Source: Takakia lepidozioides
Taxonomy: Eukaryota > Plantae > Bryophyta
Direction of reading: 5' to 3'
Assembly (NCBI GenBank): GCA_030704615.1
Contig: CM060732.1
Span: forward strand, 4,960,001-5,024,000
DNA: 64,000 bases
Shown: positions 23,031 through 55,709 of the stretch, in pieces
Layout of the letters: the number at the start of each line of letters is the position of its first letter
How positions within the stretch are numbered: the first letter of the stretch is position 1
The notes under the pieces: model-generated
Told to the model about the DNA's origin: nothing
Databases searched by the model: none
The model's input: the letters and a program-made list of their open reading frames with translations, nothing else
Position numbers and translations under genes: made by a program

Positions 23031-23034
23031 AGAT

Positions 23035-32816: not shown

Positions 32817-34795
32817 ATCCATCCGAGAGGTCCTGATTTCAAGCACCAGAGTGCATATGACCACTGAGGATTGACAGCTACAAAAAACCTGCAAGGGTAG
32901 ATGGTCATCTTGAAGAGGCAATGGCAGCACAATTGATAAAATCAGGCACCTCCACAATGATCTCCACTTCCAAAAGAGGACCCTGGGAAGAAGTTCTCAA
33001 GATTTCTTCTGGCGCTTCTGAACTTGTGAGGACACTGTATGAGGCACACTGAAAGAGGCTCTAAATTTTTGAACCATGGAGGCATTTTCACAGAGTCAGA
33101 TAATGAAGGCACCTTCATCAACACATTTCATCCTGTTTTTCCCTATTATCAGAATTGGCCCTAAATTATCGTGTTGAATTCTGCAAGTTAGCTGGTTGAG
33201 TGAACTTTGATAGTTTGAAGTGACTGACATGATACTGCCAATGTGACAACAGAAAAGTATCCAGAAATAGGTAACAGAGACGTGGAGAAGTTGTGGAATG
33301 AAAACTTTCCTGACCCCAGTTAATGGTGGGACAATCGAGGCAAAAAGGTGAATGTCTGTTGGATTACAGAGAGTAGCAGATGCAATTGAGCATATGAACT
33401 AGTGTGATAAGTTGAGTTGGGTGTTTCCTAGAACTTCAAGCTCCAGATTACTTATGATTCCCTGTGGATCAATAGCTACAAGAAACCTGCATGGGTAGAT
33501 GGTCACCTAAAGGCAGCAGCTGCAACGGCACCTTTGCTAAAATCAGGCACCTCAACCTTGACCACAACTTCTGAAAGAGGATCAAGAGAGGGAGTCCACA
33601 ATCCCTCTTCTGGCACTTTTGGGCATGTGAAGATGTTTTGTGCGGCAGGCAGTCTGACAGAGGCTCTACAGAATTTAAACCAAGGAGGCATTTCAGAACG
33701 TATGTCTGTCTCTTGTTTAAGTGCATCGAGATGGAAGGTCTGGAAGCTGGAAAGCAGATGCACACTCACATTATCCAAAGTGGGATTCCCGCCAAATGTT
33801 TTTCTACTCAACACCCTTGTCAACATGTATGTTAAGTGCAGGAGCATCATGGATGCTCACCAAGTGTTAACAGAAGGGCTCAACCATCTTTGATCACGTG
33901 GAACACGATGCTTGCAGGGTATGTACAACAAGGGCGTGGTATGGAGGCCTTGGAGACCTATGATCAAATGATGGGGGAAGGGGTGAAGCCCGACCACATC
34001 ACGTTTCTGTGCATTTGCAATGCGTGTGCAAGCCTGGCAGCTCTGGAAAATGGTGAAGATGTGCATGGCGATCAAATCTGGAATTATACCAGATGTCATT
34101 TTGAACACTACCCTGGTGGAAATGTTTGTCAAATGTGCGTGCATCGAGGATCCAAAGGGAGTGCTCGACAGTATTGGCTGAACGAGATGTGGTGTCGTGG
34201 AGTGCGATGATTGCAGGATATGCACAACAAGGGTGTTTGATGGAGGCTTTGGGGACCTATGAGCAAATGATGTGCGAAGGGGTGAAGCCCAACCACATCA
34301 CATTTTTTTTGTTTGCAATGCGTGTGCAAGCCTGGGAGCTCTGGAAAAGGGGAAAGAGGTCCATGGTGACATTGTCAAAGCTGGAATTGTACCAGATGTC
34401 ATCCTGAACCCTGCCCTGGTGGACATGGATGCAAAATGTGGGTGCATTAAGGATGCAAAGGGGTGAAGCCCAACCACATCACATTTGTTTTTGTTTGCAA
34501 TGCGTGTGCAAGCCTGGGAGCTTTGGAAAAGGGGGAAGAGGTCCATGGTGTGAAGACAATGTCTGCCACCACATTTTCGTGCGCGGGATTGGAGTTACCA
34601 CCTGCCTGGGCGCTTGTTGCTCAAAGCTGGAATTGTACCAGATGTCATCCTGAACACTGCCCTGGTGGACATGGATGCAAAATGTGGGTGCATTAAGGAT
34701 GTGAAGGGAGTTTTCAACACTATGGCTGACCGAGATGTGGTGTTGTGGAACGCGATGCTTGCAGGGTATGCACAGCAGGGGCGCGGGATGGAGGT
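32817..34795 (+). pseudogene. PDF-motif + PLS-PPR pseudogene pieces
   Basis: PDF second half at 32817-32910; WWDNRGKK exon at 33255-33347; FKLQITYDSLWINSYKKPAWVDGHL continues in frame through a linker, then (two frameshifts) into PPR motifs (33435-33870); further PLS repeats with local duplications. Confidence 0.8.
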
Positions 34796-35379
34796 CTGCT
34801 TCTGTAAGGTACTTCTTTGTGATGCAGTGCAAAGCTTGTAGATAGATGAAGGACACTTGGTCAAAGGCACAATGCAGACAACCTCTTGTGGCAATTCGTA
34901 TAGCCTAGCGCAAATCTGTGAGAGCTCCAAAAGTAGGTTGCATTCTTTCTGGCTGTTGTTCCTGAAGTACTGTCACTCGTGTTTTAGGTTGAGGCTGTAA
35001 GGCTGCACCATACTGAGGCTGCCAAAACTCTGTTGCTACTTCCGTGTGTGCGGGATGAAGGTGTACATGACCAATAGGACTGCAGGTGTTTGTCTTTGTA
35101 TTATTTTTCAAATGAGTGATGGTGGGGTGTTGTGCAGTGTGTTTACTCCTCTTCTCATATGAGCTTCACCGTCGGCTGCACTCAAGTGACGACTCTTCTC
35201 ACATCTCAGTCGTGCACGGTCTTCTCCTCAGACCCACTCCTCAACTTTATCTGCTTCCCTACAAATTGAGTGCTTAATGTTGCATTTTTGTCAACAGTGC
35301 TGCAGATCCAGGGGCAGTGAATACTGACATTTTGCGGGAAGTACCTGTTTGGCTTGCAAAGCTGAGCAATGTGCTTCTC

Positions 35380-38300
35380 ATGAGGTGTGACACCCAACAT
35401 TATTACATTCATTTCTGTTCTCAATGCTTGTGCCAGCCTAGTAGCCCTGGAAAAAGGTACAGAGGTCCATGAGCTGACATAATTCTGGAGACTACCCTTG
35501 TCGATATGTATGCCAAGTATGGGAGCTTGAACGATGCCAGACAAGTTTTTGACAAAATGTCTCAACGAAATGTGTTCTCATGGAGTGCGATGATGGAGGA
35601 TTTTGAGATGTATGAGCAGATGATACGGGAAGGCATAACGCCCAACAAGGTCACGTTCATTTCCATTCTCAATGCATGTGCCAGCATAACAGCCCTGGAG
35701 AAGGTCCATGCTGACATCATAAAAAATGGAGTTGTCTCATATATCTCTTTAGAAAATGCACTTTTTAACAGGTATGCCAAATGCGGCAGCTTAAAGGATG
35801 CACGGGAAGTGTTCCACAACATGGTTGAGCAAGATGTGGTATCATGGAGCGCAATCCCAGTGCAATGTCGATTGCAGGATATGCTCAGCATGGGTTTGAT
35901 AAGGAGGCTTTAGATATCTATGAGCAAATGATACAGGAAGGGATGACACCCAACAAGGTTATGTTCATTTGTGTTCTCAAGGCCTGTGTCATTCTCTTCG
36001 ACCAGTAGATGCCAATTAGACGCTGCTCCATGATAATGCTGCGGGGTTTGAGGCCGCTGTGTCAAGCAGTCAACTGCTTGTAGGATAAGCAAGTTGATTC
36101 TTGTCATATGATCATGTCGGGGCTCTCTCTAGCAGCATTGTCGACTGAGCTTATGCCTAAGTCACCTGCATGATTCCACAATGGTGCTAGCCACATAGAA
36201 TCTTGCAGGCAGAATTAGGGTAAGTGACGGTGGTCCATGGGTTTGCCCACAACTCGCACTAACTGTTGAGGGCAGATGTGGGCCCCTGCATTGAACAATG
36301 CCTTGGAGAATCGCCTGTCAACTGGCCTTTCAGCCTTTTGTCGGTGAGGGGTTGATGTAGTTGACCTACTTTAGGGTTTTGGAGTTGTTCAATCTATTTT
36401 TTTTCTCTCCTGCAGTCATGTGAGAAATGTTAGTGCCTCCTAAGTGTATACAAGGTGTCCAGACTTGAGTCTAATTAGTTTCCAATGCTAATTTGCTGCA
36501 GACAGGGTCATTATGCAGTCACCTGTGGTTCAAGATTAGTATTTAGTCTCCAGGCAGCTCTGCCTTGCAACGATGCCTTCCACCAGCATTTCCCTTCTTT
36601 GTGTAGATCATTGGTCGGGCCCCTACTCGCAACATCACTCCAATCAGCAGCATAGCTCTTCAGTTACAGGTCAAACGCAGAGTGCTTTGTGGAGTAGGAG
36701 GGTTCAATCATGCAGCAAGCAAGTTTATAGCAGTTTTTCAAGTAGAGTGTCTCTGTCATTGGCCAGGCTCCATGGTCGAAACCAATTGAAAATTTAAAAA
36801 TATCATATAAAGAACATTCATAATACAAATCTGTCAATTGTATCAAAACCTCCCGTTCATTTGTATTCTCATGCATGTGCCAGCCAAGTAGCCCTGGAAA
36901 AGGGCCAAGAGGTCGATGCTGACATCACCCAAGCTGGGATTGCCCGAGGTATCATTCCGGAGACTACTCTAGTTGACATGTATGCCAAATGTGGGAGTAT
37001 GAAGGATGCATTCTCAGCGTTTGACAGAATGGCTAAACAAGATGTGGTAGCCTCCGCAACAATCCACCATTTTTTTGAAAAACAAAGAAACACATGATGT
37101 ATGTATGTAACACTCTGGGGATGACCCACCCCTTTATGCTTCCAAACTCTGGGGATGCCGAAGAGGAGGGACCAGCAGGATTTTGGCCCTCTTTCCTTTG
37201 AAAAATAAAAATAATATGATAGCTTCGGCAACACTCCGCCGTTCTTCTTCCGGAAAACAATGAAATATGGGATGTATGTATGTAACACCATGGAGATGAC
37301 CCACCCTTTTTGTGAAAAATTGAACGTAGTTCTCAGAATTTGTCGCTTGTAGTGCGGAGCAACGCGAAGCCCTAGTTCTAGCGACGACCGAAGGTCGGAA
37401 GCTAATTTAGCGTAGAGCAGGAATAGGGTGCCATAGTGCCACGTCATCATCACCACGTCATCATAGCCAGGTCATCGTAGACACGTCATCATCGTCGTCA
37501 ATTTCTTTGGAATCTGCCCGGACTGCCCGCCCAAAATATGCCAATAGAAATCGTTGCGCCAACTTTTTCGGAACTGCCCGCAATGCCCGGATCTTGATCT
37601 TCTTGAACTGCAGGAGCTCTTCGTTTTCTGCCATCGTTCACCTTGGTAGCTGCAAGCTCTCAACAAATTGAGGAAATCCATGCTGAGGTAGATTGTCTTG
37701 GCAGATGAAGGATCAAGCATAGAAATGTCTTAATGTGGCTTTCGACATTGGGTGAGCCAGTGAGGGTTGTAAAGTTCAAGAATTTGAGTGATACGAAACC
37801 TGAAAACAACTGGATGGTGAACGCTATAAAGAAGTGTAGTGGAGGGGATCTGTCATGGAGAAGGTATTTACTGAATTTGAGGTCTTGTGGATAGAACTCA
37901 CATTGAAGTGAGAAAAGAAAAGTTGAAATTTGAACAGAACTGTTTGACTCTGATTGCAATGGCCTTCATTTCAGAGTTGGTTTGAAGTCAAGTTTGACAT
38001 AGGCTGCAGGGGTGCGGGATGGAGGCTTTGGAGACCTATGAGCAAATGATGGGGGAAGGGGTGAAACCCGACCACGTCACATTTGTATGTGTTTGGAGTG
38101 TGTGTGCTGGAAAAGGGCAAAGAGGTGCATGGTTGCATCGCCAAGCTGGAATTGTACATACTGAACCATACCCTCGTGCACATGTATGCCAAATTTGGGA
38201 GCATTGAGGATGCGGAGGGAGTGTTCAACAATATGCCTGAACGACGTTGTGCCGTGACAGGTGGTGTGCTTGAAGCAGAAGCAGCGACACAATTGATAAA

Positions 38301-40880
38301 ATCAGGCATCGCTAATCAAGGCACCTTCTTCAATACATTTCACCCAGTTTTAAATATCTGTGCGTTCGATACCACCTGAAACCGGGGTCGGTTTTTTTGG
38401 AGGAGGAAAGGAAGGACTCAAACGGCCTTGTTGTCGAGAGTATTGTTGTGCTCCACGATGATTTTGGCGATGGCAGGGAATGGCGAGTTCCACCATCGGA
38501 CAACGTCATATACAGGGCTGTTGGGGACTTCATTTGCACGCCAAATGCACCTTCTATCCTAGCGCCTTCCACGAAACAATCCGCGAATCAGAGAGTGGCT
38601 ACCTCAAAGAGAGAAGTCAGCAACGAAGTAAATCCAAAGCCGAACCCATCCATGAAGACGACAACAGGAAAGTAGCCAAAAACAGGTAACAGAGATGAGG
38701 AGAAGTTGTGGAATGAATACTTTTCTGAGCCCATTTACTGGTGACAGCCCTGGAAAAGGGCAAAGATGTGCATGGTTGCATCACCGAAGCTGGAATTGTA
38801 CCAGATGTGATTCTGAACAATACTCGTGGACATGTATGCCAAATGTGGGAGCATTGAGGATGCGGAGGGAGTGTTCAACACTATGGTTGAATGAGATGCG
38901 GTGTCGTGGAATGCGATGCTTGCAGGCTGTGCACAACAGGAGCGGGGGATGGAGGCTTTGGAGACCTATGAGCAAATGACGGGGGAAGGGGTGAAGCCTG
39001 ATCACATAACGTTTGTGTGCTTGTGCAAGCCTGGCAGCCTTGGAAAAGGGCAAAGAGGTCCATGGTTGCATCGTCAAAGCTGGAAATGTACCAAATGTGA
39101 ACTATACCCTTGTGGACATGTATGCCAAATGTGGAGGGAGTGTTCAACAATATGGCTGAATCTGCCTGTTTTGCCCTCTCAACAGACTTGGCCCTGAGAT
39201 GCATATTGAATTCTGTATGTTAGCTCGTTGGGTGTATCTGTGGTGGTTAGGAGTGACTTTGACAAGTTACTGCCGATGTGGCAGCAGGAAAGTATCCAAA
39301 AACAGATAACATAGATGAGGAGAAGGCTTGTTGGTGGATCTATGGTGGTTTTGGAGTGATTTTGACAAGTTACAGTAGGTAGGGTTGGGGTGTTTGTTGG
39401 AAGAACTTTGCGCCGTCAGTGTCAGCTGCTAGCAGCAAGGCTGAGGATGTATTCACGATATGTACACAGGCATGGATAGCTGAAGGAGCAGGGATCGAGT
39501 GTGGGTCCAGATTCATCCAAAAGGGCCGGATTTCAAGCTCCAGATTACCTATGATTCCCTGTGGAAGGATAGCTACAAGAAACAGATGGTCAACTGGAAG
39601 CCGCAGCAGCAGCGGCACAATGGAGAAAATCAGGCACTGCTAATGAAGACACCTTCTTCAACACATTTCACCCTATTTTTCCCTCTTATCAGAATCGGCC
39701 CTAAATTTCCATGTTGAATTCTGCAAGTTAGTTGGTTGAGTGAATCTTGTTTGGAGTGACTTTGACATGATACTGCCAATGTGACAACAGGAAAGTATCC
39801 AAAAACAGGTAACATAGATGAGAAAAAACTGTGGAATGAATACTTTTCTGACACCAGTCAATGGTGGGATAACCGAGGCAAAAAGGTGAATGCCTGTCAG
39901 ATTACCAGATGTGATTTTGAACACTGCCCTGGTGGACATGTATGCCAAAGTATCGAGGATGGCAAGGGAGCGTTCAACACTATGGCTAAACGAGATGTGG
40001 TGTTGTGGAGCGCGGTGCTTGCAGGGTATGCACAGCAGGGACGAGAGATGGAGGTGGGATGGAGGCTTTGGAGACCTATGCGCAATCGATGGGGGAAGGG
40101 GTGAAGCCTGATCACATCACGTTTGTGTGCGTTTGCAGTGCGTGTGCAAGCCTGGCACCCTGGAAAAGGGCAAGAGGTGCATGGTTGCATCACCAAATCT
40201 GCGAAGGGAGGGTTCGACACTATGGCCGAATGTGATGTGGTGTCGTGGAACACGATGCTTGCAGGGTATGCACAGCAGGGGCCTGGGAGGAGGCTTTGGA
40301 TACCTATGAGCAAATGATATTACATGTATGCAATTAGGGAGTATGAAGGATGCACATCAAGTGTTTAATAAAATGGGTCAACGGGATGTGGTCTCATGGA
40401 ACACCATGATTGCAGGATATGCCCAGAATGGGTGTGGTAGGCAGGCTTTGGAGATCTATGAGAAGATGCAACAGGAAGGGGTGACACCCAATAGGGCCAC
40501 GTTCCTTTGTGTTCCGAACGCCTGTGCAAGCCTAGGAGCCTTGAAAAAGGGCAAAGAGGTCCTTGCTAACATTCTCAAACCTGGAATCGCGTCATATATT
40601 AACTTGGAAACTGCCCTTGCTGACATGTACGCCAAATGCAAGAGCATGAAGGACAGACGACAAGTATTTAAGAGTATGGCTGTACGAGATGTGGTCTCAT
40701 GGAGTGCCATGATCATTGGGTACGCTCAAGAGGGTGTAGTAGTTGGGAGGCATTGAGGTTTATAAGAAAATGCAACAGGAAGGGTGTGACACGCAACAGG
40801 GTCACCTTCATCTGCATTCTCAAGGCTTGTGCCAGCCTAGGAGCCCTGGAAATGGGCAAAGAAGTCCACAGTGACATCAT
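35380..40880 (+). pseudogene. mosaic of PLS-PPR and PDF-exon fragments; the last PPR copy (40328-40880) is split by the retrotransposon
   Basis: repeated DVVSW/LVDMYAKCG/GVKPDHITF motifs; PDF exons at 38665-38725, 39500-39590 and 39790-39885; the reading EVHSDII|KAEIV resumes at 53528. Confidence 0.85.
37061..37376 (+). repeat. dispersed repeat ending in CTAG|T (Helitron-like 3' end), also at 56304-56448
   Basis: shared gatgacccaccc...gtgaaaaattgaac.tagttctcagaatt.gtcgct.gtagtgc.gagcaacgcgaagccctagt; similarity stops right after CTAGT in both copies. Confidence 0.45.
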
Positions 40881-41207
40881 TGTCAAGTTATTTTACCACT
40901 AGTGTGAAACTAGCTAGGAAATAGCTATCTTTTACATATTGACATTTGGGATTGGCCCAAGTGTCAATCCAGGGGTCAAGGCAGATTTAGGCCCTGGAGT
41001 GGTTATCTTCACGGCAAGCGCGGGAGGCTCATCTTTCTCGAGTTGAGCCTCACCGCGCCTAGCTATGGCGCCGTAGTGTGGATTCCCCATGGCGTGGGGT
41101 GCACTTGGCTTGACTTGTATTTGAGTGATGAGGTTATATATGCATGAGTTTATGCTTCAGCTTTGTGAGCTCGCATGAGCTTGTGCTTGTATTCTTCTTC
41201 TTTATCA
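40881..41207 (+). repeat. 3' half (segment A) of the 5' LTR, ending TTTATCA
   Basis: 326 bp identical to 53015-53340 except 2 substitutions. Confidence 0.92.
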
Positions 41208-41219
41208 CTCGAGAAAGAT
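41207..41219 (+). promoter_or_regulatory. self-priming primer-binding site (complementary to LTR 41031-41043)
   Basis: actcgagaaagat is the reverse complement of atctttctcgagt; there is no TGG tRNA-type PBS after the LTR. Confidence 0.7.
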
Positions 41220-42734
41220 CAGCTCGTATCTGTGAGTGCCAGATACGAGTTAGTTGTAGCACTTGTGGTTTTTTCTTGAGAATGAGAGAAACCAAGTTGT
41301 TATGCAAGGAGCACCGTGGAGCTCTTAGTTGTTAGAAGCGGAGGCGATGTGGGTTACGAGGTGGTAGACCTTGGCATTCGATCTTCAGCTTCAGAGATGA
41401 AAGCACCATGCTGCAGGTAATTCCAGAGCACCTTGATGGTTCCAGATTGTGTACATGCATGAGCAAGCACGATTGGGAAGAGGACCAGTCAAGAGCAGGT
41501 TATAGTGGCTTTGGTGGCAAAGCTGAGAACTGGACTTGGGAATGCGAGCTTTCATTGTGTGAAGGATTGCAAGACCAAGCGAAAGGGCTGATTTGCTTGG
41601 GGCAAATCAGTGCACTTTGTGGAGTATGGTGAGATTGGGTTTCAATCTCGAGCTTCAGCATTGAGAGGGCTCTTGTCATGGCAAGAGCAGGGCTGGAACA
41701 GGAGCTAAGAGGTGCGGCAAGGCCATGGAATGTGCACCTAGGGTTTCAGAGCTTGGAAGAAGAGTTCTTGCACCACAAGAGAAGTGTCTTGTGGCTGGAA
41801 ATGTAAGCCTTAGGGTTTCAGGAGCTTGGCAAAGGCTATGGAGTGCTTAGTCTTGTCATAGAGAGCATCAAGGAGCCAAGGAGCCAAGATAGGGGCTGAT
41901 ATCTCTTGTGTGAAGAGTTTGCATGTGTGAGCATGTATTCAGCTCATTGAAGCTTCCATCTTCAAGCTTGGAGGGCAAGCAAGGAAGAGGGAAGGGCTGA
42001 CTTCCCTTATGTGAGGGCAATGTATGTGTGGAGCATGCTATCAGCCTGGTGAAGGCTTGCACTTTTAGGTGTGGGAGTGCAAGAAAGGAAGGAAGGGGCT
42101 GGTTTCCCTGTAGGGCATGTAGAGCATGCTTTCAGCCTGCTGAAGCTTGTATTATCAGGTTTGTGGGTGCAAGAAATGAAGCAAAGGAGCTGATTCTCTT
42201 ATGGTGAGAGTGGGGCATGTGTGGAGCATGCCTTCAGCCCATTGAGGCTCTTGCTTCAAGCCTTAGAGAGCTAGAACGGAAGGTCTAGGGCTGGTTTCCA
42301 CTTGGAGTGAAAGAACAGCACTTGTAGGGCCTATGTGAGTTGGGGTTTCAACTTCAAGCTTGAAGGGAGCGCAACTCTTGAAGCAACAGGTGTAGAGGGC
42401 TGGAATAGGCTCTAAGACAGATGCTATGGCCAATGAGGGGAGTGCTTGAATGAGTGCTCACAAGGGCTGGGAACCAGCAGGGCTTGGTTGTTTGCCATTG
42501 AGTTTAGTGGCGTGTTGGGGGAGGCTAAGTGAGAAAAAAGGCTTGGTTTGTGGCAACCACCTCATGGCTTAGGGCTACTATGGTGGTGTGTGGGAGCCGA
42601 AAGAGCAAGGATACCTTGCTGATTTCCTCACAGCCACCATAGCTCGGTGGAAAGAAGCCTAGAGTCAAGAGACACAAACCCTAGCTTGGCGTGGCTAAAC
42701 CCCTTGGAGAAATGGCTAAACTGCCAGAGCGGCC

Positions 42735-45090
42735 ATGTGTGGGGCTGTGGTGTGTGTGGGGCTGTGTCATGTGTGCGGCTGTGGCAAGCTGTGAGGGCTG
42801 TTGTGACGGGCTGTGACAGGCTGGTGTGTGGGAGATGTGTGATGTGTGTGTGTAGTTGTGGACGGGCGGGTGTGGGTGTGACTGGCTGTGGTGTGCTGTG
42901 GGGCTGTGACAGGCTGTGCCGAGGCCTTTGAGGCTGTGACGGGGTGTGACAGGCTGTGACAGGCTTGTGCCCTGGGCCTGGGGGGCTGTGAAGGGGCCTT
43001 TGTGAGCAGGCTGTGGGGCTGTGACAGGCTGTGCCCTGTGGCCTTTGGGGCTTGTGCTGTGACGGGCTGTGTGCGGGGCTGTGACAGGCTGTGCCCTTGA
43101 GGCTGTGGGGCTGTGAGGGGCTGTGACAGGCCGTGTGCCTGATGGCCTTTGGGGAGGTGGGCTGTGAAGGGCTATGAGGGGCTGTTGAGGCTGTGCTGAG
43201 GCCTTTGGGGAGTGGCGGCTGTGTGTGGGCTGTGAGGGGGCTGTGACAGGCGGTGCCTGAGGCCTTTTGAGGATGGGGAGGGTGTTGGTGCGAGGGGTTG
43301 TGAAAGGTGGAGGCATGGCTTGGGGTGTATGTGAAGGGCTGTGAGGGGGCTGTGACAGGCCGTGCCTGAGGCTTTGAGGCTGTGAGGGGCTGGGATGTGG
43401 GCTGTGAGAGGTGGAAGGCTGTGACAGGCTGGGCTGGATTTGGGCTGGTGGGGTGTGCTGTGTGAGGGTGGTGGTGTGTGAGAGGCTGTGTGCACTTCTG
43501 TGAGGGCTGTGAAGCCGTGCCTGAGGCCTGTGGTTGCTGGCGGGGATTGTGTGTGAGGGGCCGTGACTGAGGCCTTTGGGGCTGTTGTGGGGGTTGTGAC
43601 AGGCCGTGATGAGGCCTTTGGGGCTTGTGACGGGCTGTAGGGGATGGGTGTGTTGGTGTGCAGGAGGTGTGAGGCTTGAGGAGGGGTGAGTTGAGATGTG
43701 AGGAGGGCTGTGTGTGAGGCTGTGACGGAGGCTGGGGAGGTGATGGGCTTCTGTGTATGGGCTGTGATGGGGTGTGAAGGGGTGCCATGGGCTGGGTGGC
43801 TGTGAGGTGTGAGGGCTGGTGTGTAAGGAGTGAAGTGGACTTGGGGGATTGTGTGGGATGTGGGGTGTGTGAAGGGCTGTGAGGGGCTGTGTGACAGGCC
43901 GTGCCCATGGCTTTGGGCTTTTTGTGCTGTGACGGGTGTGAGGGGCTGTGACAGGCCGTGCCTGAGGCCTTTGAGGCTGTGACGGGCTGTGAGGGCTGTG
44001 ACAGGCCGTGCCATGGCCTTTGGGGCTGTGACAGGCCGTGCATGAGGCCTTTGGGGCTGTGACGGGCTGTGAGGGGCTGTGACAGGCGTCCCATGGCTTT
44101 GAGGGCTTTGTGTGCTGTGAAGGGCTGTGAGGGGCTGTGACAGGCCGTGCCATGGCCTTTGGGCTGTGACGGCTGTGAGGGCTGTGACAGGCCGTGCCTG
44201 AGGCATGTGGGGCTGTGACGGGGCTGTGAAGCTGTGCCCATGGCCTTTGGGGCTGTGATGGGCTGTGAGGGGCTGTGACAGGCCGTGCTGAGGCCTTTGA
44301 GGATGTGTGTGTGATGGGTTGTGAGGGGCTGTGACAGGCTGGGCCCTGTGCCCTGTGGGGCTGTGACGGGCTGTGTGGGCTGTGACAGGCTGTGCCAGTG
44401 GCCTTTGGGCTGTGACGGGCTGTTGTGAGGGGCTGTGACAGGCTGTGCCCTGAGGCTGTGGGGCTGTGTGACGGGCTTGTGACGGCTGTGGTGCCATGGC
44501 TTTGGGGCTGTGATGGGCTGTGAGGGCTGTGTGACAGGACGTGCCTGAGGCATTTGGGGCTTTGTGCTGTGGCTGGTGTGACGGGCTGTGTGAGGGGCTG
44601 TGACAGGCCGTGCCTGAGGCCTGTGAGGCTGTGTGAGGGCTGTGTGAGGGGCTTGTTGTGAGGGCTGTGGTTGTGTGTGGACAGGCCGTGCTAAGGCCTT
44701 TGGGGCTGTGATGGGAGGGTGTGAGGGGATGGGGTGACAGGTTGTGGATGAGGAATTGTGAGGCGGTGTGGAGTTCTTGTGTGGTGTGTGTGTTTGTGAA
44801 GGGCGTGTGAGGGTGTGTTCGGTGGTGTTGGAGGGGCTGTGGGTATGACAGGGCCGTGGCCTGAGGCCTTTGAGGCTTGTGTGAGGGGCGTTGTGTGGAG
44901 GGGCTTTGTGTGAAAGCAGTGCCTGAGCTTTGAGGCTTTGTGGAGAGCTGTGAGGGGCTGTGACAGGTTGTGCCCCGTGGCCTGTGGGACTGTGAGGCTT
45001 GGTTTGTGTGACCAGTGAGCTTGTGGGCCTGTGCTGGTCTGTGGGGCCCGTGTTGACCTGTGGATGGCCTGTGCTGACTCGTGGAGGCAC
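42735..45090. repeat. G/T-rich degenerate tandem array (GGCTGTGA core; ~45-55 bp higher-order unit) in the retroelement 5' region
   Basis: many ggctgtga / ggctgtgacaggccgtgcc / gaggcctttgggg units; strong strand asymmetry. Confidence 0.9.
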
Positions 45091-45289
45091 TGTGGACTAA
45101 GGACTGGCTGTGGTCTGGAAGGCGAATTGTGAAGCTGTGGAGGGCGGTTTGAGGAGTATCTTCATGATATTCCCATGGTCATGCAGAGGTTCAGGTGTAG
45201 GCTATGTTAGGAACTTAGTATTCCAAACCATAAGCCGCAACAGGTTCTCTACCCGGTTACCTTGTGGAGAGGGGGTTAGGGACATGTTC

Positions 45290-46809
45290 ATGACCGGTTG
45301 AGTGTCAACACGGAGGTGCCACTAGTTGCTGGGGACAGTGCCGGTTCGAGCACTAGCGATACTAGTGGGTACACGAGACGAGGTGTGCGGTTTAGGCCAC
45401 CTTCACCTCCTGTGTCTTCACGGAAGGTTCTGATTCGGATTGTGAATCAGGAGGCTCATACGGCGGGTGCAAGTTGTTTCTTTGCCATTGTTGTGGGACA
45501 CAATGGAGGAGATGTATGGAGCTACCAAGGGGCCACGAAGGTACTCTGGGGCGGTGGGCACCATTGAGTTGGATGATTTTATCCAAGAGTTTGATAGTTG
45601 GTGTGATTTGCAGCAAATGCGCAATCCACAACTATTTACGCCGTTCATGGCATGGAAAGGGCTGTTTCAGCACCTTGAGGGGCCGCCTATGGATGATTAC
45701 CATGAGTTCAGGCGGGGGCATGAGGTTGAGATCGAGGAGTGGAGGATGTACTGGTCACCCGACTATGTCTCCATCACTAGGGGCACTAGAGCCACGAGGG
45801 CAGTGGCTACACCTGCCGCTGCACCGGCAGCTTCAGCAAGTAGCAGTGGGACTGGTGGTACAGTAGCTACGACGTCCACCCAAGCCACTACCGCACCAGC
45901 ACTAGCACCCGTGCCTGCCTTCAACCCTGTTGTGGAGTTCTTCGAAGAGTTGAGAGGGAACTACCAAGGGGTGAGGACAGAGAAGTTGCGGAGCTTGCAA
46001 GAGTTCCAACGGAAGCCGACCGAGAGCTTGAGGGAGGCTTTCACTCGCATGAGGCGCTTGATAAATGTAACCAAAGGGGTTACGGAAGCTCAGGCAGTCC
46101 AATTCTGGTATGGGATATTGGACAAGGAGCTGAGGAGAAGGGTGCGGGATGCAACTCTCCTACAAGCGGCCCAACCCACCTTAGCAAATGTGTTTTTGCT
46201 GGCAGAGCGGATAGAGCTCAACATGGTGGAGGAACGAGTGGTCATGGTGGGATTTGCTAAGGAGACACCACGGGGTAGTGGTGCTCCTAGCCAACCACTA
46301 CCTCAACGTGCTCAAGGCAACAAGGGGGCTCAGGTGAAGCTCAGGGAAGGGCAGAGAGGACCTCAGATGCAGGGGTCTCTCCCTTCATTTGCTGGCCAAC
46401 AACGGGCGGATGTGGTGTGCTGGACATGTGGAGGACCCCATGTCAAGAAGGATTGCCCAGAGGGAGGCAAAGGGCCGGCACATGCACAGCCTGCACAGTT
46501 GCAGTGTGGGCATTGTGGCAAGCACGGGCATGGAGAGGCCCAGTGTATAGTTTGCATCCTGAGTTGCGCCCAGGCCAGTTCCAAGGGAACAATGGTGGCC
46601 GGGGGCGAGGTGGAGCAGCCCAGAGAGGACGAGGTGGCCAGCCACGAGGTGCAGGCCAAGGGCAAGCTCAACGTGGCCAAGGACGCGGAGGTCAGGGTGT
46701 TGACCAAGGCATGGCCAACCGGCTTCAGCAGCTAGAGCAGAGGCTCGCTGCCATGGCTACAGCTCAGGTGGTACCGGCTCTAAGGCCGGATGGTCCACCT
46801 CCTGCCTGA
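45290..46809 (+). CDS. retrotransposon gag with two zinc knuckles (frameshifts)
   Basis: LDDFIQEFDSWCD, FQRKPTESLREAFTRM, CWTCGGPHVKKDC, CGHCGKHGHGEAQC. Confidence 0.8.
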
Positions 46810-47479
46810 GGGAGGAGAGAGATATGGGAGGCATGGGATTCATGTGTGGAGCAGCACTACCACTAGTGCAGGTGGAGTCTGCTGCAGCCGTGACTCGAGG
46901 AGCAGCACGAGTTCCTGAGCCACGAGGTGCAGAGGTGGAGTTGGATCCACAGCGTGGGGAGGCAAGCCGTCAGGCTAGGCTTCCTCAGTCATTCACATTG
47001 GCGGAGACAGTGTCGACGCCATCCATGGCACCTAGTTCTCGCCCGACTGTTACCGAGGCGGAGGTTACTATGCCATGGGGGAGAGCTACACGGGTAGCAC
47101 CACTACCTAGTGTTGCCAAGGCTACGGCAGCTAGTGTGCTGCTAGGAGCGGCCACATCTGTGTGCCAGGCTCCATTGTTCTCGGCTACCATGATTGCGAC
47201 GCCGGGGGTAAGACCAGCTGAGGTGTTCAGGCTGGCAGCTACACTCTGTGAGAGTGGGGAGGTTACTTCATCTTCTGCGGAGATAGTGGGAGGTGTAGTG
47301 CCGGAGGGATCCTCGGATTTGAGGGTCAAGACTGCCACGGCGGCGCCATGGCAAGCTGCAGCTGCCAGGTTGATGGAGCTGCCAGCTAGGCCAGCCATTG
47401 AGCGCGCCATGGTGACACCTGGAGTTGTCATGTTAGACAACCAGGATGGCATTTTCTGTTTGAGTGGACCGGCAGGCAA

Positions 47480-47800
47480 GAGGTACCGGCCACTGCGAGT
47501 CTTGTTGGACTCGGGAGCTCAGCCACTGATGCTGGGCAGAGCTGCTATTGCAGGCTTGGGCCTCACGGAGGCGGATGGATATGGAGCCTTGTCCTTTCCA
47601 GATACAGACGTCTCTGGGAGGATCGGAGCAGGCTCGGGGCATGACACGGCATGAGTTGGCTATCAGACTACGGCCGGATCACCCTACAGATGGCTCAGTG
47701 ATGCGAGCCAAGGCCATTGTGACAGACGCAGTCTCATACGATGTCCTGGTGGTGGGGGCAGTGTTGTACCCCATGGGCTTCACCCTGGATTTTTGGGAGG
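47480..47800 (+). CDS. retrotransposon aspartic protease
   Basis: RVLLDSGAQPLMLG...YDVLVVG. Confidence 0.8.
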
Positions 47801-48224
47801 AGTCAGCTTCCTATAGGCCTGCATGGCAGTCAGGGGAGGGCCGGCGTGTGCAGCTCCCTGTGACGTTCATAGGAGGAGTTGCGGTTGCCCAGCGAGGCAA
47901 GATGCCGACACTAGCAGCATTCACAGCGGCAGTGAGTTGGCCTAGAGAGTTGCTTGAGGGCAATGCTCATTCAGAGGATGTACCACCTCCGGGAGAGCAG
48001 GATGACATGTATGGTATGGCGGAGTTGCCTACCATGGTTGCTCAGACTCCATTGTGGGGCACGAGCAAGGATTTGCAGCGGGATGCTGATCGACGGGTGC
48101 AACAAGCCTGGGTGGAGGCTTTTGTACCGTCAGGAGAGGAGGAGAGTGTGGGGATTGCACCAGGACCACCTCAATGTCTCCATTGGACACCACACCTATT
48201 GTGTGGCAGTCTCCGGATGAAGGC

Positions 48225-49170
48225 ATTTGTCTTCTGGACTTGTTTGGCGGGATCAGCACCGGATTGGCTGCTGTGTTACAGGCAGGTGTACGAGTTCGGC
48301 GTTACCTGTATGTGGAGAGGGATGAGACTGCACGACGCGTTTCACTTCGCCATGTTGCTCAGTTGGTGCAGCGGTACCCTGAGTTGTTGTCGGTGTCTGC
48401 AATTCGTGGATATCAGCAGGCCTTGCCAGCAGACATTTCGTTGCTGGGGGCGCAGGATTTGGAGCGGGTTGGCTCCATTGATCTGGTAGTGGCAGGTTGG
48501 CCCTGCCAAGGGCATTCATCAGCCGGGCATGGCAATGGATTGCGAGACTCGAGGTCGGGTCTGTTTTGGGAGATGGTGCGGGTTTTGCGCCACTTGCAGC
48601 TTCATCAAGCTGTATCTCCAGCATACATCTTGGAGAATGTGCCACTGATGGGCGATTCTCGGGCCAGGGTGATGGCCAGTGTGCATCAAGTCCGGTCGTG
48701 GCTTGGGTCAGCAGTGTTGCTAGATGCAGCTACAGTGGGGTCACGGGCTCATCGTCCACGGCTATGGTGGACTAACATGATGCCACCCGCACTGCTCAAG
48801 CGTGCATTTGATGGGGTGCAGCGGCCAGCACATCTCACAGTGGATAACATTCTGGACACAGGGAGGCAGTCTCAACGTGTGAGACACGATGACCGTTCGC
48901 CTTTGCAGTGGTCAACAAGGTGGGTCAACCACGAGCAGCATTACCTACACTGCTCAGCTTCCCAGGATCGCATGCTTTCCGGGATAGTGGACCTGGCCTC
49001 CTGTGGGATGCTCAGTTGCAGCAGTTAGTGGAGCCTAATGCTGACGAGCGTGAGCGGGCAATGGGTTTTACCACTGGTACCACGGCGGTGTCGTCTCTTT
49101 CTGAGGCATCACGTCGTCAAGTGTTGGGGCAAGCAATGGATCTCAATTGCTTGACCTGGATTATCAGCTT
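48225..49170 (+). CDS. C5 cytosine DNA methyltransferase domain, DNMT3-like, inside pol
   Basis: motif I LDLFGGI (F at 48243), II YVERD, III DI, IV AGWPCQG (PC 48501-48506), V SRSGLF, VI LENV (48633), VIII AHRPRLWWTN, IX ERERAMGF, X RRQVLGQAM; one frameshift at ~48905. Confidence 0.92.
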
Positions 49171-49679
49171 GGCTCTAGCTGAGCAACGCAGAGTGCGGAA
49201 TACACTTCCCTCAATGGTCTCTCTGCCTACCGAGACGGTACAGGCAGTGAGTGGGGGCGAGCATATGAGGACCACGGGGTGCATGCATCCATGGCACACG
49301 TGGGAGGTGCTCGAGGTTCAGAGAGGGAGTTGGCAGCCAAGGCGGCTGTGATGGATGAGGTTGGGGATTCTTCTCGAGTTGAGGAGGTCCTCAAGGATGA
49401 GATGATGGGGCAGGATGATGCCTTGTCATTGACTGAGCAAGGTAGGGAGTACTGCTCAAGAGGTTGCAGCAAGCACCACGGGACGCGTCCTCTACTCTAA
49501 GCCCACTGGACTTAAGGTTGTAGTTACGGAGGACAATTGGGAGCCTGACATTGGACCCATTGCACCGGAGGAGAGAGACGACGTATACGGCGGTTCCTGA
49601 GGGCTTACAGGAATTGCTTTACCTTCAGTTTGAAGGACTTGGAGCACTGAAGGGTCAAGAGATCCGTATTGAGTTGGCC

Positions 49680-50960
49680 ACTGACACGCCAATCTTTCGG
49701 AGACCCTATAGATACAGTGACATGGAGAGGTCTTTGATTCGATGAGGACTCAAGATCTCTGGGAGGCAGGTTTGGTGGAGCTCTCTGGTGAGAGTATTCT
49801 TCAGCACAGTGATGCCAGCCAAGGGATGTCTATGGGCAATTGGACGGAGAGACTTATGTTGCGGTGATTACCGGCCTGTAAATCGTCAGACCAAGTCCGA
49901 TAAGTATGCCATGCCAACACCAGAGGAGATCTTTGATGCCATCGGGCATGCTAAGGCCTTTAGCACTTTGGATTTACGATCCGGATATCACCAGTTGCCA
50001 ATCAAGGAGGCGGACAAGCAGAAGACGGCATTCTGGGGGATCAATGAGCACGGCAAGGATTGCCTATATCAGTGGCGGTTCTTACCATTTGGGCTTAAGA
50101 ATGCTCCTGCAGAGTTTCAGAGAGTCATGGATAGGATTCTAGCAGGGGTGGACTTGCTCGGTGCTACATAGATGACATCATCATCTTTAGTGTTACGATG
50201 GAGGAGCATGAGAGACACCTTCAGGTGTATTGGAGCGCTTAAGAGCGCACGGATTGAAGTTGCATCCGGGGAAGTGCAAGTTTTTCCACAACCAGATTGA
50301 GTATCTGGGTCACATGATATATCCTGGAGGATTGGGGGTACAGCAGACTAAGGTAGAGGCCATTGCACAATTCCACGCCCCACGGATGTGAGCCGAGTTC
50401 GAGCTTTCATGGGGTTGGCAAACTATTATAGACGGTTTGTCAAGGGATTTAGTACCATTGCAAGGCTCTAACCAAGCTGACCAAGGTGGACCAGGAGTGG
50501 CAGTGGGAAGATGAGCAGGAACGAGCTTTTCAAGAGCTCAAGGCGAGGTTGACCTCGGCGCCTATCTTGAGACGACCTATCAGGGGGCGTCCCTTTCAGC
50601 TGCATACGGATCGGAGCATCTGGGGCTTGGAGCGGTGCTCACACAGGTGGATGATGAGGGAAGAGAGTTCGTAGTGGCTTACGCTAGCCGCTCGAACAAC
50701 GCTGCAGAGGCAAAGTACAGCTCATATGAGGGAGAGTGCTTAGCTGCAGTGTGGGCCGTGGCACACTTCAGGTGCTATCTATACGGCAATCTTTTCACCC
50801 TTGTCACGGATCACCAGCCACTCAAGTAGTTGATGGAGTCAGACAAGCTTACGGGGAAGCTTGCACGGTGGGCACTTATACTCCAGGAGTATGACTTTCA
50901 GGTTGTGCATCGACCGGGTTGGTCAATCGGGATGCGGATGGATTGAGTCGCAATCCATGC
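49680..50960 (+). CDS. reverse transcriptase and RNase H (frameshifted)
   Basis: CGDYRPVN, STLDLRSGYHQ, LPFGLKNAPAEFQR, YIDD (50165-50176), FQLHTD, VAYASR, EGECLAAVWAV, VTDHQPL. Confidence 0.93.
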
Positions 50961-51259
50961 ATGAGCCAGCAGGATGACACTGGAGCTCGGTGGCCATGGT
51001 GAGACGGACGAGGAGATGGTGCCGGGATGGCACGCATCTGCATTTTTGTGTATCTTGGCATCGGGAGGTCAGATTGGACCTACAACAGGGATGACTGTAG
51101 ACGGAGTGTCTGAGGACCCTGAGGCTAGTGATGAGCTAGGTGGTGCCAGAGATATACATGAGGATTCGGCTGTGTTGGACTACCTCCGCACGGGAGACAC
51201 GGCAGCCATTGTGACTGCCAGGGAGAGGGATCGGATCCTACAACGAGCCAAGAGGTTCA

Positions 51260-52380
51260 AGTGGGAGGGGATACACCTACTTCGAGTGTGGGAGGGTGGT
51301 CGGGTAGGATTGTGCCTCACCCCACACAGCGTGCACGGTTAGTGCGGCATGCCCATGAGGAGTTGGGGCATTTTGGAGTGCGACGCACTCACAGTTTACT
51401 GCAGGGGCAGTATTGGTGCGTGGTATGCATACAGAGGTGCAACAGTTTGTGGCTAGGTGCATGGTGTGTGACAGGGTGCGTGCTTCGTTTAACACCCCTA
51501 CACCACAGTTGCATCCTTTACCTATCATGGGATTGGGCTACAGATGGAGTCTTGACTTCGCAGGACCGTTGCCACTGACTATGCGCCACCACAGATATGT
51601 GTTGGTGATGGTGGAGCACTTCTCCAAGTGGATTGAGTTGGTTCCATTGCCTGACAAGGCTAGTGAGGGGCTGCGTATGCATTCTTGGATCGTGTGCTTA
51701 GCCGATTTGGTGCTCCAGCTGAGGTACTCATGGACCAAGGGAGAGAGTTCTTGGGGAGTTTCAGGCTTTGTGTGATAAAGCCTTGATAGACCACCGCACC
51801 ACTTCTCGGATCATCCTGAGGCCGATGGCTTAGCAGAGAGAGTTGTTCAGACGGTGAAGAGGGGTTTGCGCAAGTATGGCTTGCAGAAGGGACACCTAGG
51901 AGATTGGGATCTTCAGGTTTCTTGGTTAGCCATGGGCTACAGGTTCAGCAAACAAGCATCACTTGCCTCCTTCTCACTGGCCGAGAGCCGGATTTGCCTG
52001 CAGCCATTCGTAGGGACACTGCTCAAGTCCTTAACCTTGACGATCCGGACGTGTGGATACGTGCATGTGATCAGCGTGCAGAGTTGTTCAAGAAAGTCAT
52101 GCCCCATGGCTTTTGAGAACCTTGCCATTGCACAGCACCGTGATACGTTGAGGTATGCCACTATACGTGGTGGGGATATCGTCCTGGGGTTCGGAGGTTT
52201 AGCCCTGGTGACTATGTTTATTTGCAGCAGACTGCTCCTACGACTCTGGATGTTACTGTAGGGCGTGTTATTCTGAGGGTTCGAGAGGTGTTGCCCTCAG
52301 GGGTCCCGATCTAGAGGGTCGGGATGGCATGACTTGGAAGACCATGTGCGTAATTGTGCGCCATGTCACCTTCCCAATGT
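51260..52380 (+). CDS. DDE integrase (frameshifted)
   Basis: AHEELGHFG...CMVC (HHCC), WSLDFAGPL, VEHFSKW, DQG, HPEADGLAERVVQTVK. Confidence 0.9.
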
Positions 52381-52429
52381 CGATGGCAGAGTTGACCCAA
52401 ACTTGGCAGTGGTACCTGCAGGTTTGAGG

Positions 52430-52564
52430 TGCATGCTCTGTGGGTCTGCCAAAGGGGCAGCCACCATGCTGGTGTGTGATCGGTGCTCAAGGGTTGGCAT
52501 ATGGGATGCTTGACACCACCTCTTGAGAAGGTTCCTGACGGAGATTGGTTTGTGTCCACACTGC
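52430..52564 (+). CDS. PHD finger at the integrase C-terminus
   Basis: CMLC...MLVCDRC..GWHMGCLTPPL.KVPDGDW.CPHC (C4HC3), read across two 1-nt indels. Confidence 0.85.
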
Positions 52565-52829
52565 TTGGGATAGTGGCAGTGGACATGACTGGAGGCAGCT
52601 AATAACATGGAGGCCAAGCTCATAGGAGTCAATACATGAGATCCCAAGCTCAAGTTCACAGGTTGCAAGATGGCGACTAACGATGGGGCAACTCTTGCAC
52701 CCGGCCTCTTGATCTATCGAGTTTGAGTGTAGTAGGGATAGTGGTGGAGGACTTAGTGAGGCTATGGTCACTATCACATCTTGTGGCTACCTGGACTTAG
52801 AGGGACCTAAGCACCAGCTAGGGGGCGAT

Positions 52830-53340
52830 TGTGTGGACTAGTGTGCTGCCATAGTGGGCAGCGTAGTGGCAGCCTGTGACTGACTAGTTGTAGCCTAGTG
52901 GTTGGACTAGTGCTGGACTAGTGGTAGTAGTGGTATACTAGTGTGTGGTGTGCACATGTGTTGTGTGGTTTTGGACAGCGATGTAGTTGTGTAGCGATAT
53001 GTATGCGCACCAGCTGTCAAGTTATTTTACCACTGGTGTGAAACTAGCTAGGAAATAGCTATCTTTTACATATTGACATTTGGGATTGGCCCAAGTGTCA
53101 ATCCAGGGGTCAAGGCAGATTTAGGCCCTGGAGTGGTTATCTTCACGGCAAGCGCGGGAGGCTCATCTTTCTCGAGTTGAGCCTCACCGCGCCTAGCTAT
53201 GGCGCCGTAGTGTGGATTCCCCATGGCGTGGGGTGCACTTGGCTTGACTTGTATTTGAGTGATGAGGTTATATATGCATGAGTTTATGCTTCAGCTTTGT
53301 GAGCTCGCATGAGCTCGTGCTTGTATTCTTCTTCTTTATC
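52830..53340 (+). repeat. complete 3' LTR (B+A, 511 bp) preceded by PPT AGGGGGCG
   Basis: starts TGTGTGG after tagggggcgat; ends TTTATC. Confidence 0.88.
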
Positions 53341-53343
53341 TAT

Positions 53344-53527
53344 TGTGTGGACTAGTGACTGCCATAGTGGGCAGCGTAGTGGCAGCCTAGTGACTGACTA
53401 GTTGTAGCCTAGTGGTTGGACTAGTGGCTGGACTAGTGGTAGACTAGTGGTATACTAGTGTGTGGTGTGCACATGTGTTGTGTGGTTTTGGACAGCGATG
53501 TAGTTGTGTAGCGATATGTATGCGCAC
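53344..53527 (+). repeat. extra 5' half (segment B) of the LTR
   Basis: repeat of 52830-53010 with a few small indels. Confidence 0.9.
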
Positions 53528-54634
53528 GACATCATCAAAGCTGAGATTGTGTCAGATATAACTTTGGAGAATACACTTGTCGACATGTATGCCAAATGTG
53601 GGAACATGAAGGATGTGCATCAAGTGTTTGACAAGATGACTAAACGAGACATGGTCTCATGGAGTGCCATGATCGCAAGATACATACAGGATGGGTCTAG
53701 TAGGGAGGCTTTCAAGATCTATGAGCAGATGGAACTTGAAGGGGTGATGCCCAACCATGTCACATTTATTTGCATTCTCAATGCGTGTGCCAGCCTTGGA
53801 GCCTTGGGAAAGGGTAAAGAAGTCCATGCTGACATCTTGAAAGCTGAAATTACGTCATATGTAAATCTGGAGACTGCACTTGTAGACATGTAAGCCAAAT
53901 GTGGGAGCTTAGAGGATGCGCGTGAAGTGTTTGACAGTATGGCTAAACAAGATGTGGTCTCATGGAATGCGCTGATCATAGGATATGCTCAGCACGGGTG
54001 TGGTAGGGAGGCCTTGCTCCTATTGGAACAAATGCAACAGGAAGGCGTGAAGCCTAATAGTAGTACCTTCATATCTGTCTTTTCAGCAAGCAGCCATGGG
54101 GGTCTAGTGGATGAAAGCCATCAGTGCTTTGATTCCTTGAGACATGATCATGGTCTCACTGCTACAGTGGAGCATTTTAGCTGCATGGTGGACCTTCTTG
54201 GCCGTGCAGGGCGATTGTATAAAGCAGAGGACTTAATTAACACGTGCCAATCATGCCAGATGTTGGGGTATGGATGGCCTTGCTTGGTGCCTGCAGAGTT
54301 TGGAGATGTGGAGATAGCAGAACGTGTAGCAAAGAGCATTCTCAAGATTGATCTGGAGCACTCCGCGGCTTATGCGCTGCTATCAAACATTTATGTTGCG
54401 GCTGGCAGGTGGGATGACAAAGCAAAGGTGAGAAAAATGATGAAGGACAAGGGTATCAGAAAGGAGCCAGGGTGCAGCTGCATTGAGGTTGACAACAGGG
54501 TGCATACTTTTGTTGTAGGAGACAAATTGCATCCACAAATTCAGGAAATTCATGCTGAGCTGCAGAGATTGTCTGGACTGATGAAGGGGGTGGGATATAT
54601 TCCTGACACGCGCTTTGTGTTACATGACGTTTAG
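53528..54634 (+). pseudogene. 3' part of the PLS-PPR-E/E+ gene split by the retroelement; truncated in the DYW domain
   Basis: DIIKAEIVSDITLENTLVDMYAKCG..., HFSCMVDLLGRAGRL, YALLSNIY, KEPGCSCIEV, GYIPDTRFVLHDV*; in-frame TAA at 53891. Confidence 0.9.
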
Positions 54635-54644
54635 GAGGACATGA

Positions 54645-55709
54645 TGTCAAATGTGGGTGCATCGAGGATGCAAATGGAGTGTTTGACAGTATGGCTGAAC
54701 GTGATGTGGTGTCGTGGAGTGTGATGATTGCAAGATATACACAACAAGGGTGCAGGATGGAGGCTTTGGAGACCTATGAGCAAATGATGTGCGAAGGGGT
54801 GAAAACCAACCACATCACGTTTGTGTCAATGCTTGTGCAAGCCTGGTAGCCCTGGAAAATGGCAAAGGATGCATGGTGACATCATCAAAGCTGGAATTGT
54901 ACCAAATGTCATTCTGAACACTGCCCTGGTGGACATGTATGCGAAATGTGGGTGCATTGAGGATGCACAGGGAGTATTTGACAATGTGGTTGGCTTGAAG
55001 CCGGACAGTATCACCTTTATATATTTTTTCTCTGCATGCAGCCACACTGGCCTACTGAATGAAGGAAGATGCTACTTCGATTCCCTGAGTCAAGATCATG
55101 GTGCACCCCGCCAGTAAAGCACTTTGGCTATGGTGGACCTTCTGGACGTGCGGGACAACTACATGAGGCAGTGGACCTGATTAATAAAATGCCAATCAAT
55201 CCAGATGTTGTGGTGTGGAAGGCCTTGCTTGGTGCCTGCAGAATCCATGGCAATGTGGAGATGGCTGAATGTGTGGTAACATCTATCCTCAAGTGGGATG
55301 AACAGGATGCCACGACTTATGTGTTGCTATATCAAACATCTATACTGCAGCTGGCAAGTGGGATGATACTGCAAAGGTGAGAAGAATGATGAAGGTCAGA
55401 GGGGTTAGAAAGGAGCCAGATGACAAGTTGCATCCCAGAATTAAGGAAATCCATGCTGAGCTGAGAAGAGGAGGCGGGGTATGTGCCTGACACACGCTTT
55501 TTATTGCATGATGTGGAGGAAGCTGAGAAGCTGGCCATTGGTTTTGGGCTGATCAGCACGACTCATCAAGAATCTTCGAGTGTGTGGAGACTGCCACACC
55601 TCCACCAAATTCATCTCAAAGATTGTTGGCCGAGCAATTGTTGTATGGGACGCTAACTACTTTCCACCACTTTGAAGATGGGATTTGTTCTTGTGGTGCT
55701 TACTGGTGA
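54645..55709 (+). pseudogene. PLS-PPR-E-DYW pseudogene with DYW C-terminus (ends CSCGAYW*)
   Basis: [49 protein letters not shown]; HSE zinc motif deleted; very similar to 31450-32345. Confidence 0.9.

Follow-up and report, generated by a model that had tools for sequence, protein, structure and literature searches.

Reverse transcriptase and integrase define the same termini in textbook LTR elements. PAT, Ngaro and TOC1 are split-direct-repeat retroelements of the tyrosine-recombinase kind. Repeats of the DIRS type are given as A-coding region-B-A-B in the legend to Fig. 1 of de Mendoza et al. 2018 (PMC5890265), an article in which SymbioDIRS-Dnmt3 appears as a split-direct-repeat tyrosine-recombinase element, while the legend to Fig. 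4 assigns to KnitGypsy-Dnmt3 of Klebsormidium nitens a DIRS-type repeat structure together with Gypsy domains. Streptophyte Gypsy-DNMT3 elements are also referred to in passing in a 2026 preprint (10.64898/2026.05.21.726589). The passages of the 2018 article devoted to KnitGypsy-Dnmt3 say nothing of termini, target duplication, a palindrome, a self-priming site, an A-internal-B form, a mechanism or land-plant members, and a search of its supplementary files returned no mention of a target-site duplication (TSD). For retroviruses, integration from a circle junction was proposed early (Panganiban and Temin 1984) and then dropped in favour of linear DNA (PMC11054761), with cleavage of 2-LTR circles reported later (PMC4372172, PMC1180852, PMC1905944).

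Here, we analysed a 64,000-nt stretch of the Takakia lepidozioides genome (hereafter the window), which carries an element at 40881-53531 with the repeat order A-internal-PPT-B-A-B (Table 1). The A...B-A-B layout is genuine, and it is the normal form of one Ty3/gypsy lineage with the order gag-PR-DNMT-RT-RH-DDE integrase-PHD. A sequence-only reading of the same DNA had described this repeat order, the polypurine tract (PPT) and the A/B join, all of which are present in the sequence and in the repeat alignment. The two A copies (40881-41206 and 53015-53340) are 99.4% identical, with 2 substitutions and no gaps, and the two B copies (52828-53010 and 53342-53527) are 96.8% identical, with 1 substitution and 5 gap columns; counted as substitutions only, divergence amounts to 0.6% between the A copies and 0.5% between the B copies. 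In each of five complete copies, A/A and B/B divergence is of the same order. With its repeats less than 1% diverged, the element is, judging by its sequence, a young copy of a C5 cytosine DNA methyltransferase (DNMT)-carrying Ty3/gypsy lineage. Because the repeat pairs are less than 1% substituted and yet the coding region is full of frameshifts, the frameshifts and the single letters missing from B1 suggest assembly indel errors and not decay.

Table 1. Features of the element in the window, with positions on the forward numbering of the stretch
Feature	Position	Strand	Remark
Left target-site duplication TCAT, 4 bp	40877..40880	+	Within PPR coding stretch
A1, left terminus, begins TGTCA	40881..41207	+	3' part of RT-defined LTR (putatively end of U3, R, U5)
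Predicted self-primer, putative transcript 5' end	41031..41043	+	Complementary to 41207-41219
Self-priming primer-binding site (PBS)	41207..41219	+	Directly after A1
Degenerate GT-rich tandem-repeat array, 2.4 kb	42700..45100	+	Leader
gag, Retrotrans_gag E 0.002, below Pfam cut-off	45446..46735	+	
Protease region, LLDSGAQP motif	47400..47870	+	Aligns to Asp-protease region of relative L081
C5 cytosine DNA methyltransferase (DNMT) domain, PF00145 E 2.6e-13	48110..49200	+	
Reverse transcriptase + RNase H, frameshifted in assembly	49620..50950	+	
H2C2-rve (DDE) integrase with C-terminal PHD finger, frameshifted in assembly	51300..52560	+	
Polypurine tract (PPT)	52820..52828	+	Directly before B1
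B1, 5' part of LTR	52829..53012	+	Directly after PPT
Internal att-like palindrome, here CA-GC-TGTC	53011..53018	+	Family form GACA-GC-TGTC two letters longer
A2	53015..53340	+	Repeat alignment to A1
A/B join j, between PBS-defined and PPT-defined cDNA ends	53335..53350	+	
B2, right terminus, ends GACA	53343..53531	+	
Right target-site duplication TCAT, 4 bp	53532..53535	+	

The element sits inside a PPR cluster (31000-40880 and 53532-55100), which is large, carries E and E+ motifs and is heavily frameshifted. The window also contains pieces of another retroelement at 21700-26700, namely a minus-strand RT (21776-22447) and a plus-strand gag with a zinc knuckle (22336-23640), together with an inverted similarity of 65% between 24905-25545 and 26052-26677. 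DUF7869 is matched (E 4.5e-35) at 15149-15907 on the minus strand, and nearby, at 13039-13872, lies a pair of 30-nt inverted repeats 774 nt apart. In the leader array of the element (42700-45100), stop-free frames of up to 822 aa occur on the minus strand, the longest of which has no Pfam match.

We examined the window's own family through contigs of public runs aligned to 53011-54300 and 40770-41290. The sequence GACATCAT occurs at 40873-40880 and again at 53528-53535, and it had been read as an 8-bp target duplication accompanied by loss of CAGC at the opening point, with TGTC...GACA ends and a 4-bp TCAT duplication offered in brackets as the alternative. The repeated sequence does stand at both flanks, but the duplication is shorter: contigs leave the window after 53531, into A or into varied flanks (56 contigs with an agreement of 0.41 in run X1, and 39 contigs with an agreement of 0.39 in run X4), so that GACA at 53528-53531 is element sequence, the duplication is TCAT and the internal junction of the family is GACA-GC-TGTC. 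Moreover, GACA ends 43 of the 59 right ends called in relatives. The element thus begins with TGTC (40881) and ends with GACA (53531), only GC is lost, and it is the bracketed alternative that proved right. An 8-bp hAT-like target duplication is ruled out, as GACA belongs to the element.

Contigs from the family show the same anatomy. In run X1, contigs that leave A at 41207 other than into the PBS continue with B (12 contigs, agreement 0.98), and contig ends before 40881 are a mixture of B-GACA-GC and flanks (21 contigs, agreement 0.50), while a 1656-nt contig from the independent run X7 joins a different flank to A-PBS and represents a second copy. Run X8 had no contig on 40770-41290, which does not speak for absence. 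One join form dominates in this family; it is 1 nt shorter than that of the window (TTTATC-T-ATTGTGTGG at 53335-53350) and is present in all four runs aligned to 53011-54300 (28, 6, 2 and 2 contigs; at most three samples), and the internal palindrome of the window is two letters short of the family form, probably through an assembly error. None of the run contigs listed for either end bridges the flank junctions of this locus, and this single insertion therefore rests on the assembly, on the 4-bp duplication and on the alignment to a PPR paralogue, in which the PPR stretch resumes in register past TCAT. Summed contig depth in runs X1 and X5 is about twice as high over A and B as over the PBS region, a ratio that fits this layout and canonical elements equally, is not a copy number and was given no weight. 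One record of run X5 (record 22, 237 nt, with 6 differences and 1 gap over 191 positions) begins at 53528; it could represent either an empty allele or a closely related paralogue, and is left out of the counts.

An alignment search with the integrase-PHD region provided 84 loci from relatives, namely the best 80 of 496 confirmed metagenome matches and four loci from a genome collection. Downstream of the integrase, 33 of them carry B-A-B, 27 B, 5 B-A and 1 A-B, and 18 have no unit; 14 of these 18 have at most about 200 nt after the integrase, and two others are distant elements with repeats unmatched by the units used. The 59 called right ends come down to 48 distinct flanks once shared flanks are removed (24 B-A-B, 23 B only and 1 deleted B-A-B), and every left end with an intact start begins flank/A, without B in front (13/13). 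Among the 11 complete loci, the 4-bp duplication is exact in six, has one mismatch in three and is absent from two (L035 and L046); the six exact duplications are 4 bp and no longer, against a chance background of 8 exact 4-bp matches in 827 mismatched flank pairs (P about 4e-10). In all 30 distinct B/A junctions, drawn from four subfamilies, the spacer is 2 nt, and the junction reads (C)ACGACA-GC-TGTCA or a transition variant of it, in LTRs that are otherwise unlike among the subfamilies. The A/B join is variable, with at least six forms in 15 copies of subfamily 2 and an insertion in L012. Join type does not cluster on the subfamily-2 tree (148 of 200 shuffles score as low), nor does B-only status, in a test of little power, since the tree is nearly a star with 1 of 24 branches well supported. 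In every readable copy, the ends defined by reverse transcription and the integrated ends lie about 110-190 bp apart.

The sequence-only reading had left two accounts of the layout side by side, the insertion, as a rare event and by a non-canonical route, of an extrachromosomal 2-LTR circle opened within one LTR, or a non-standard integration route used by the whole family, and had proposed a comparison of termini across family copies, in which the same permutation point in many copies would mean a distinct architecture. This is what we observed: the permutation point recurs both within the family of the window element and across four subfamilies related to it, which speaks for the family-wide route and against the rare event. 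The opening does lie within one LTR, as suggested, but at a conserved integrase-type palindrome and not at an arbitrary point, and the TG...CA ends and 4-bp duplications are of the DDE-integrase kind, contrary to a non-canonical insertion.

The mirror form, A-j-B.A-internal-B, was not seen among the relatives, and all seven B-only copies with a visible left end start flank/A. One locus (L072) ends in B.A followed by unrelated DNA (3510-4140), with its left end off the contig, and is possibly a canonical right end or a failed join. Two further loci (L017 and L081) show B.A-PBS, which is unreadable because the contigs are or appear collapsed; that of L081 is circularly collapsed and that of L017 probably so. 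Collapse of short reads could also swell the B-only count or conceal copies of the mirror type. At L001:107-520, a diverged A is closely followed by B without an internal region, a candidate solo A-j-B with no clear duplication. Loci L081-L084 are likely contaminants of the cyanobacterial, mollicute and haloarchaeal assemblies in which they are found, since they are eukaryotic retroelements in records filed as prokaryote genomes. Viral contigs gave nothing for the junction motif, the DNMT or the integrase alignment, and an exact 27-nt A pattern had no match in metagenome contigs.

The coding region places the element within Ty3/gypsy. The order is PR-RT-RH-INT with a Ty3-type RT (the RT of relative L081 has Ty3 as its best PDB match, E 6.7e-100), a PBS follows the 5' repeat, a PPT precedes the 3' repeat, and the termini are TG...CA with a 4-bp target duplication. 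The integrase domains PF17921 (H2C2) and PF00665 are matched, and the window sequence retains legible D, D and E motifs. Of 159 proteins gathered, the motif could be read in 89, and in 87 of these the second D and the E are spaced by 34 residues. What departs from Ty3/gypsy is the lack of paired complete LTRs, none of the 13 left ends carrying B before A. Canonical Ty3/gypsy elements, including Tf1/sushi and Tcn1 (PMC6317226), share with the window the gag-PR-RT-RH-INT order, the PPT, predicted self-priming, TG...CA ends and the 4-bp duplication, but in the window lineage the ends of integration differ from those of reverse transcription and the 5' end lacks a full LTR. Unlike canonical Ty3/gypsy and Tcn1, the lineage has a PHD finger and a DNMT; the PHD finger is called by Pfam in relatives, and at the integrase C-terminus of L019, L050 and L081 Pfam gives PHD and not the chromodomain that marks chromoviruses such as Tcn1 and Chlamyvir. 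A PHD finger is also found in Gypsy-7a_cRei of Chlamydomonas, which, however, has nearly complete paired LTRs (PMC9940879).

With the split-direct-repeat tyrosine-recombinase elements, the window shares the A...B-A-B arrangement, including an internal B/A junction that mirrors the joined termini. In contrast to PAT, Ngaro and TOC1, it has a DDE integrase, a Ty3-type RT, a PBS and PPT, TG...CA ends and 4-bp duplications, whereas the DIRS/PAT/Ngaro pattern is a tyrosine recombinase without a DDE integrase. As the earlier reading had noted for the window, no tyrosine recombinase domain was detected in the frames scanned, which comprised 65 of the 67 window-element frames of at least 70 aa (the other two lie in the repeat array) and 44 of the 66 frames of four relatives (L019, L045, L050 and L081). 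The element appears to work like a Ty3/gypsy element with relocated attachment sites, set apart from ordinary members by its unpaired LTRs and from DIRS/PAT by the missing recombinase.

Like KnitGypsy-Dnmt3 and the streptophyte Gypsy-DNMT3 elements, the window element combines a C5 DNMT within a Gypsy polyprotein with a DIRS-like repeat arrangement (PMC5890265). The DNMT, with readable PCQ and ENV motifs, lies between the protease and the RT, and in other relatives (P0025, P0029 and P0035) between RNase H and the integrase. Among the matches listed, its closest named relatives are from Marchantia polymorpha, Calypogeia fissa and Sphagnum (63-77% identical), and no K. nitens name appears among the listed DNMT matches (40 in one search; the best 120 of 197 in another). 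In the integrase tree, the window falls among proteins from Marchantia, Calypogeia and Sphagnum, on a branch lengthened by its frameshifts, a placement that by itself makes a bryophyte-type host probable; four K. nitens integrase-PHD proteins lie in or beside the wider clade, while KnitGypsy-Dnmt3 itself was compared by its description. Since the layout has already been mentioned for KnitGypsy-Dnmt3 (PMC5890265), what is new here is the description of how the ends are built, together with the proposed mechanism; we found no published account of such termini, palindrome or mechanism in a search that covered subscription journals, Repbase reports and theses thinly.

The PPT before B and the PBS after A1 imply that the LTR, in the sense of reverse transcription, is B followed by A; A alone as the LTR is ruled out, because the PPT precedes B and not A. 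The 13 nt right after A1 (41207-41219) are complementary to 41031-41043 within A, a length reached in none of 300 shuffles, and pairing with the PBS is predicted for the 5' end of an RNA that begins at 41031. A self-priming arrangement of this kind is described for Tf1/sushi and Tcn1 (PMC6317226), and among 14 copies tested here the complement beats shuffles in nine. Since a hairpin within A (41018-41059) holds the self-primer in its loop, the pairing is predicted only with an RNA start near 41031. The PBS is followed by another perfect hairpin (41223-41249), and the predicted fold of the hairpin/PBS region is much stronger than that of shuffled sequences (z about -8). In line with the earlier reading, the A/B join is, by its PBS- and PPT-predicted position, the joint between the two cDNA ends.

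We propose that the DDE integrase cuts not the cDNA ends but the internal palindrome GACA-GC-TGTC, and that the reverse-transcribed ends are end-joined to each other, a reading to which we assign a probability of roughly 0.6. Inserted copies end precisely at the two palindrome halves, without the GC between them, and are flanked by 4-bp duplications, while the joint of the cDNA ends is variable. The layout, the termini, the duplications, the conserved palindrome and the variable join are directly seen in inserted copies, from which we infer the later steps as follows. The RNA would start in mid-A and prime itself, and reverse transcription would yield B.A-internal-B.A, as suggested by the base pairing. 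The integrase would then make a staggered cut, CA^GC.TG, on both strands of the palindrome duplex GACAGCTGTC, giving two ends, each with its CA-3'OH recessed behind a 2-nt 5' overhang, that would be inserted 4 bp apart; ends of this form are those inserted by retroviral integrases (PMC11054761). As the absence of the mirror form suggests, the palindrome used would be that of the 5' LTR copy, which may be the first to become double-stranded; this copy appears favoured because all seven B-only copies with a visible left end start at A. In the standard scheme, strand displacement would complete the 5' LTR copy first. The free A end would be ligated to the start of B either before integration, as a 2-LTR circle, or after it, by gap repair, producing A-internal-B.A-j-B, with the join made by host repair or by an RT jump. 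The A-internal-B form, which is about as common, may derive from a 1-LTR circle, a double cut or B-by-B recombination, and such copies are predicted to be dead because they are without a 3' copy of R. Autointegration circles are ruled out as a source of the join, as they join an LTR end to internal sites and not end to end (PMC7197481).

The proposal resembles the retroviral circle-junction model in that an integrase acts on a twofold-symmetric CA...TG junction inside a DNA molecule. In retroviruses, however, integration proceeds mainly from linear cDNA, and the junction concerned is the point where two LTRs meet, with CA and TG separated by 4 nt, whereas in the window lineage the palindrome is built into each LTR, its spacer is 2 nt, and the integrase does not act where the two LTRs truly meet.

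Among the alternatives, the one that survives best, while still improbable, is copying as in PAT and Ngaro, in which the transcript crosses the join into B2, the join is templated, the RT product ends or has its circle junction at the palindrome, and the integrase inserts it. The layout equals that of split-repeat DIRS-class elements (PMC5890265), and the dominance of a single join form in the window's family is what a templated join would give; nevertheless, the conserved PBS after A1 and PPT before B1 put the cDNA ends exactly at the join, and in relatives the join forms vary without following the tree. We consider it similarly doubtful that a closed 2-LTR circle is an obligate intermediate and is cut equally at either palindrome, along the strict Panganiban-Temin route, the mirror form having been lost or collapsed. 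Such a route predicts the same termini, duplications and variable join as our preferred model, and HIV-1 integrase has been reported to linearise 2-LTR circles at their palindromic junction (PMC4372172), but two equivalent sites should make the mirror form about as common as B-A-B (24 of 48), and this is at odds with the uniform flank/A start of the seven B-only copies.

The remaining explanations carry little weight. A tyrosine recombinase supplied in trans, integrating a circle at the B/A junction as in DIRS, PAT and Ngaro, would leave the same repeat layout, yet it is largely refuted by the retained DDE integrase, by the lack of a recombinase domain in the window and four relatives, and by TG...CA ends with 4-bp duplications of unrelated sequence; to our knowledge, recombinase-based elements do not make such target duplications. 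It is even harder to believe that a normal LTR element was misassembled: the window does come from an indel-rich assembly with many 1-2 nt gaps and frameshifts, and no listed contig bridges the flanks of the locus, but the join and both end types are found in contigs of runs from several samples and in independent metagenome assemblies, and the 4-bp duplication lies in a PPR stretch that continues in register. Finally, the idea that the 2-LTR circle of an ordinary element was captured just once, at a chromosome break and with duplication of 8 bp, could draw on GACATCAT on both sides and on a window join 1 nt off the main form of the family, but is refuted by the recurrence of the break point in its own family and at 48 distinct right and 13 left ends of relatives, and by GACA being element sequence.

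That the ends of reverse transcription and of integration are about 110-190 bp apart points to a different integration intermediate and to a dependence on end-joining. On balance, we think it probable that in a streptophyte lineage of Ty3/gypsy the integrase attachment site has shifted away from the cDNA ends and into a palindrome within the LTR, so that each productive insertion would involve an internal double cut and ligation of the reverse-transcribed ends, an obligate version of the junction route of 1984 that would have reached high copy number in bryophyte-type genomes unseen by paired-LTR finders. Relatives do occur in the protein sets of Marchantia, Calypogeia and Sphagnum, and it follows from the layout that pipelines built on LTR finders overlook or mislabel an abundant family with a DNA methyltransferase of its own. 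A natural enzyme and its substrate also make it possible to test directly whether a DDE integrase is able to use an internal palindromic junction for integration, a question of long standing.
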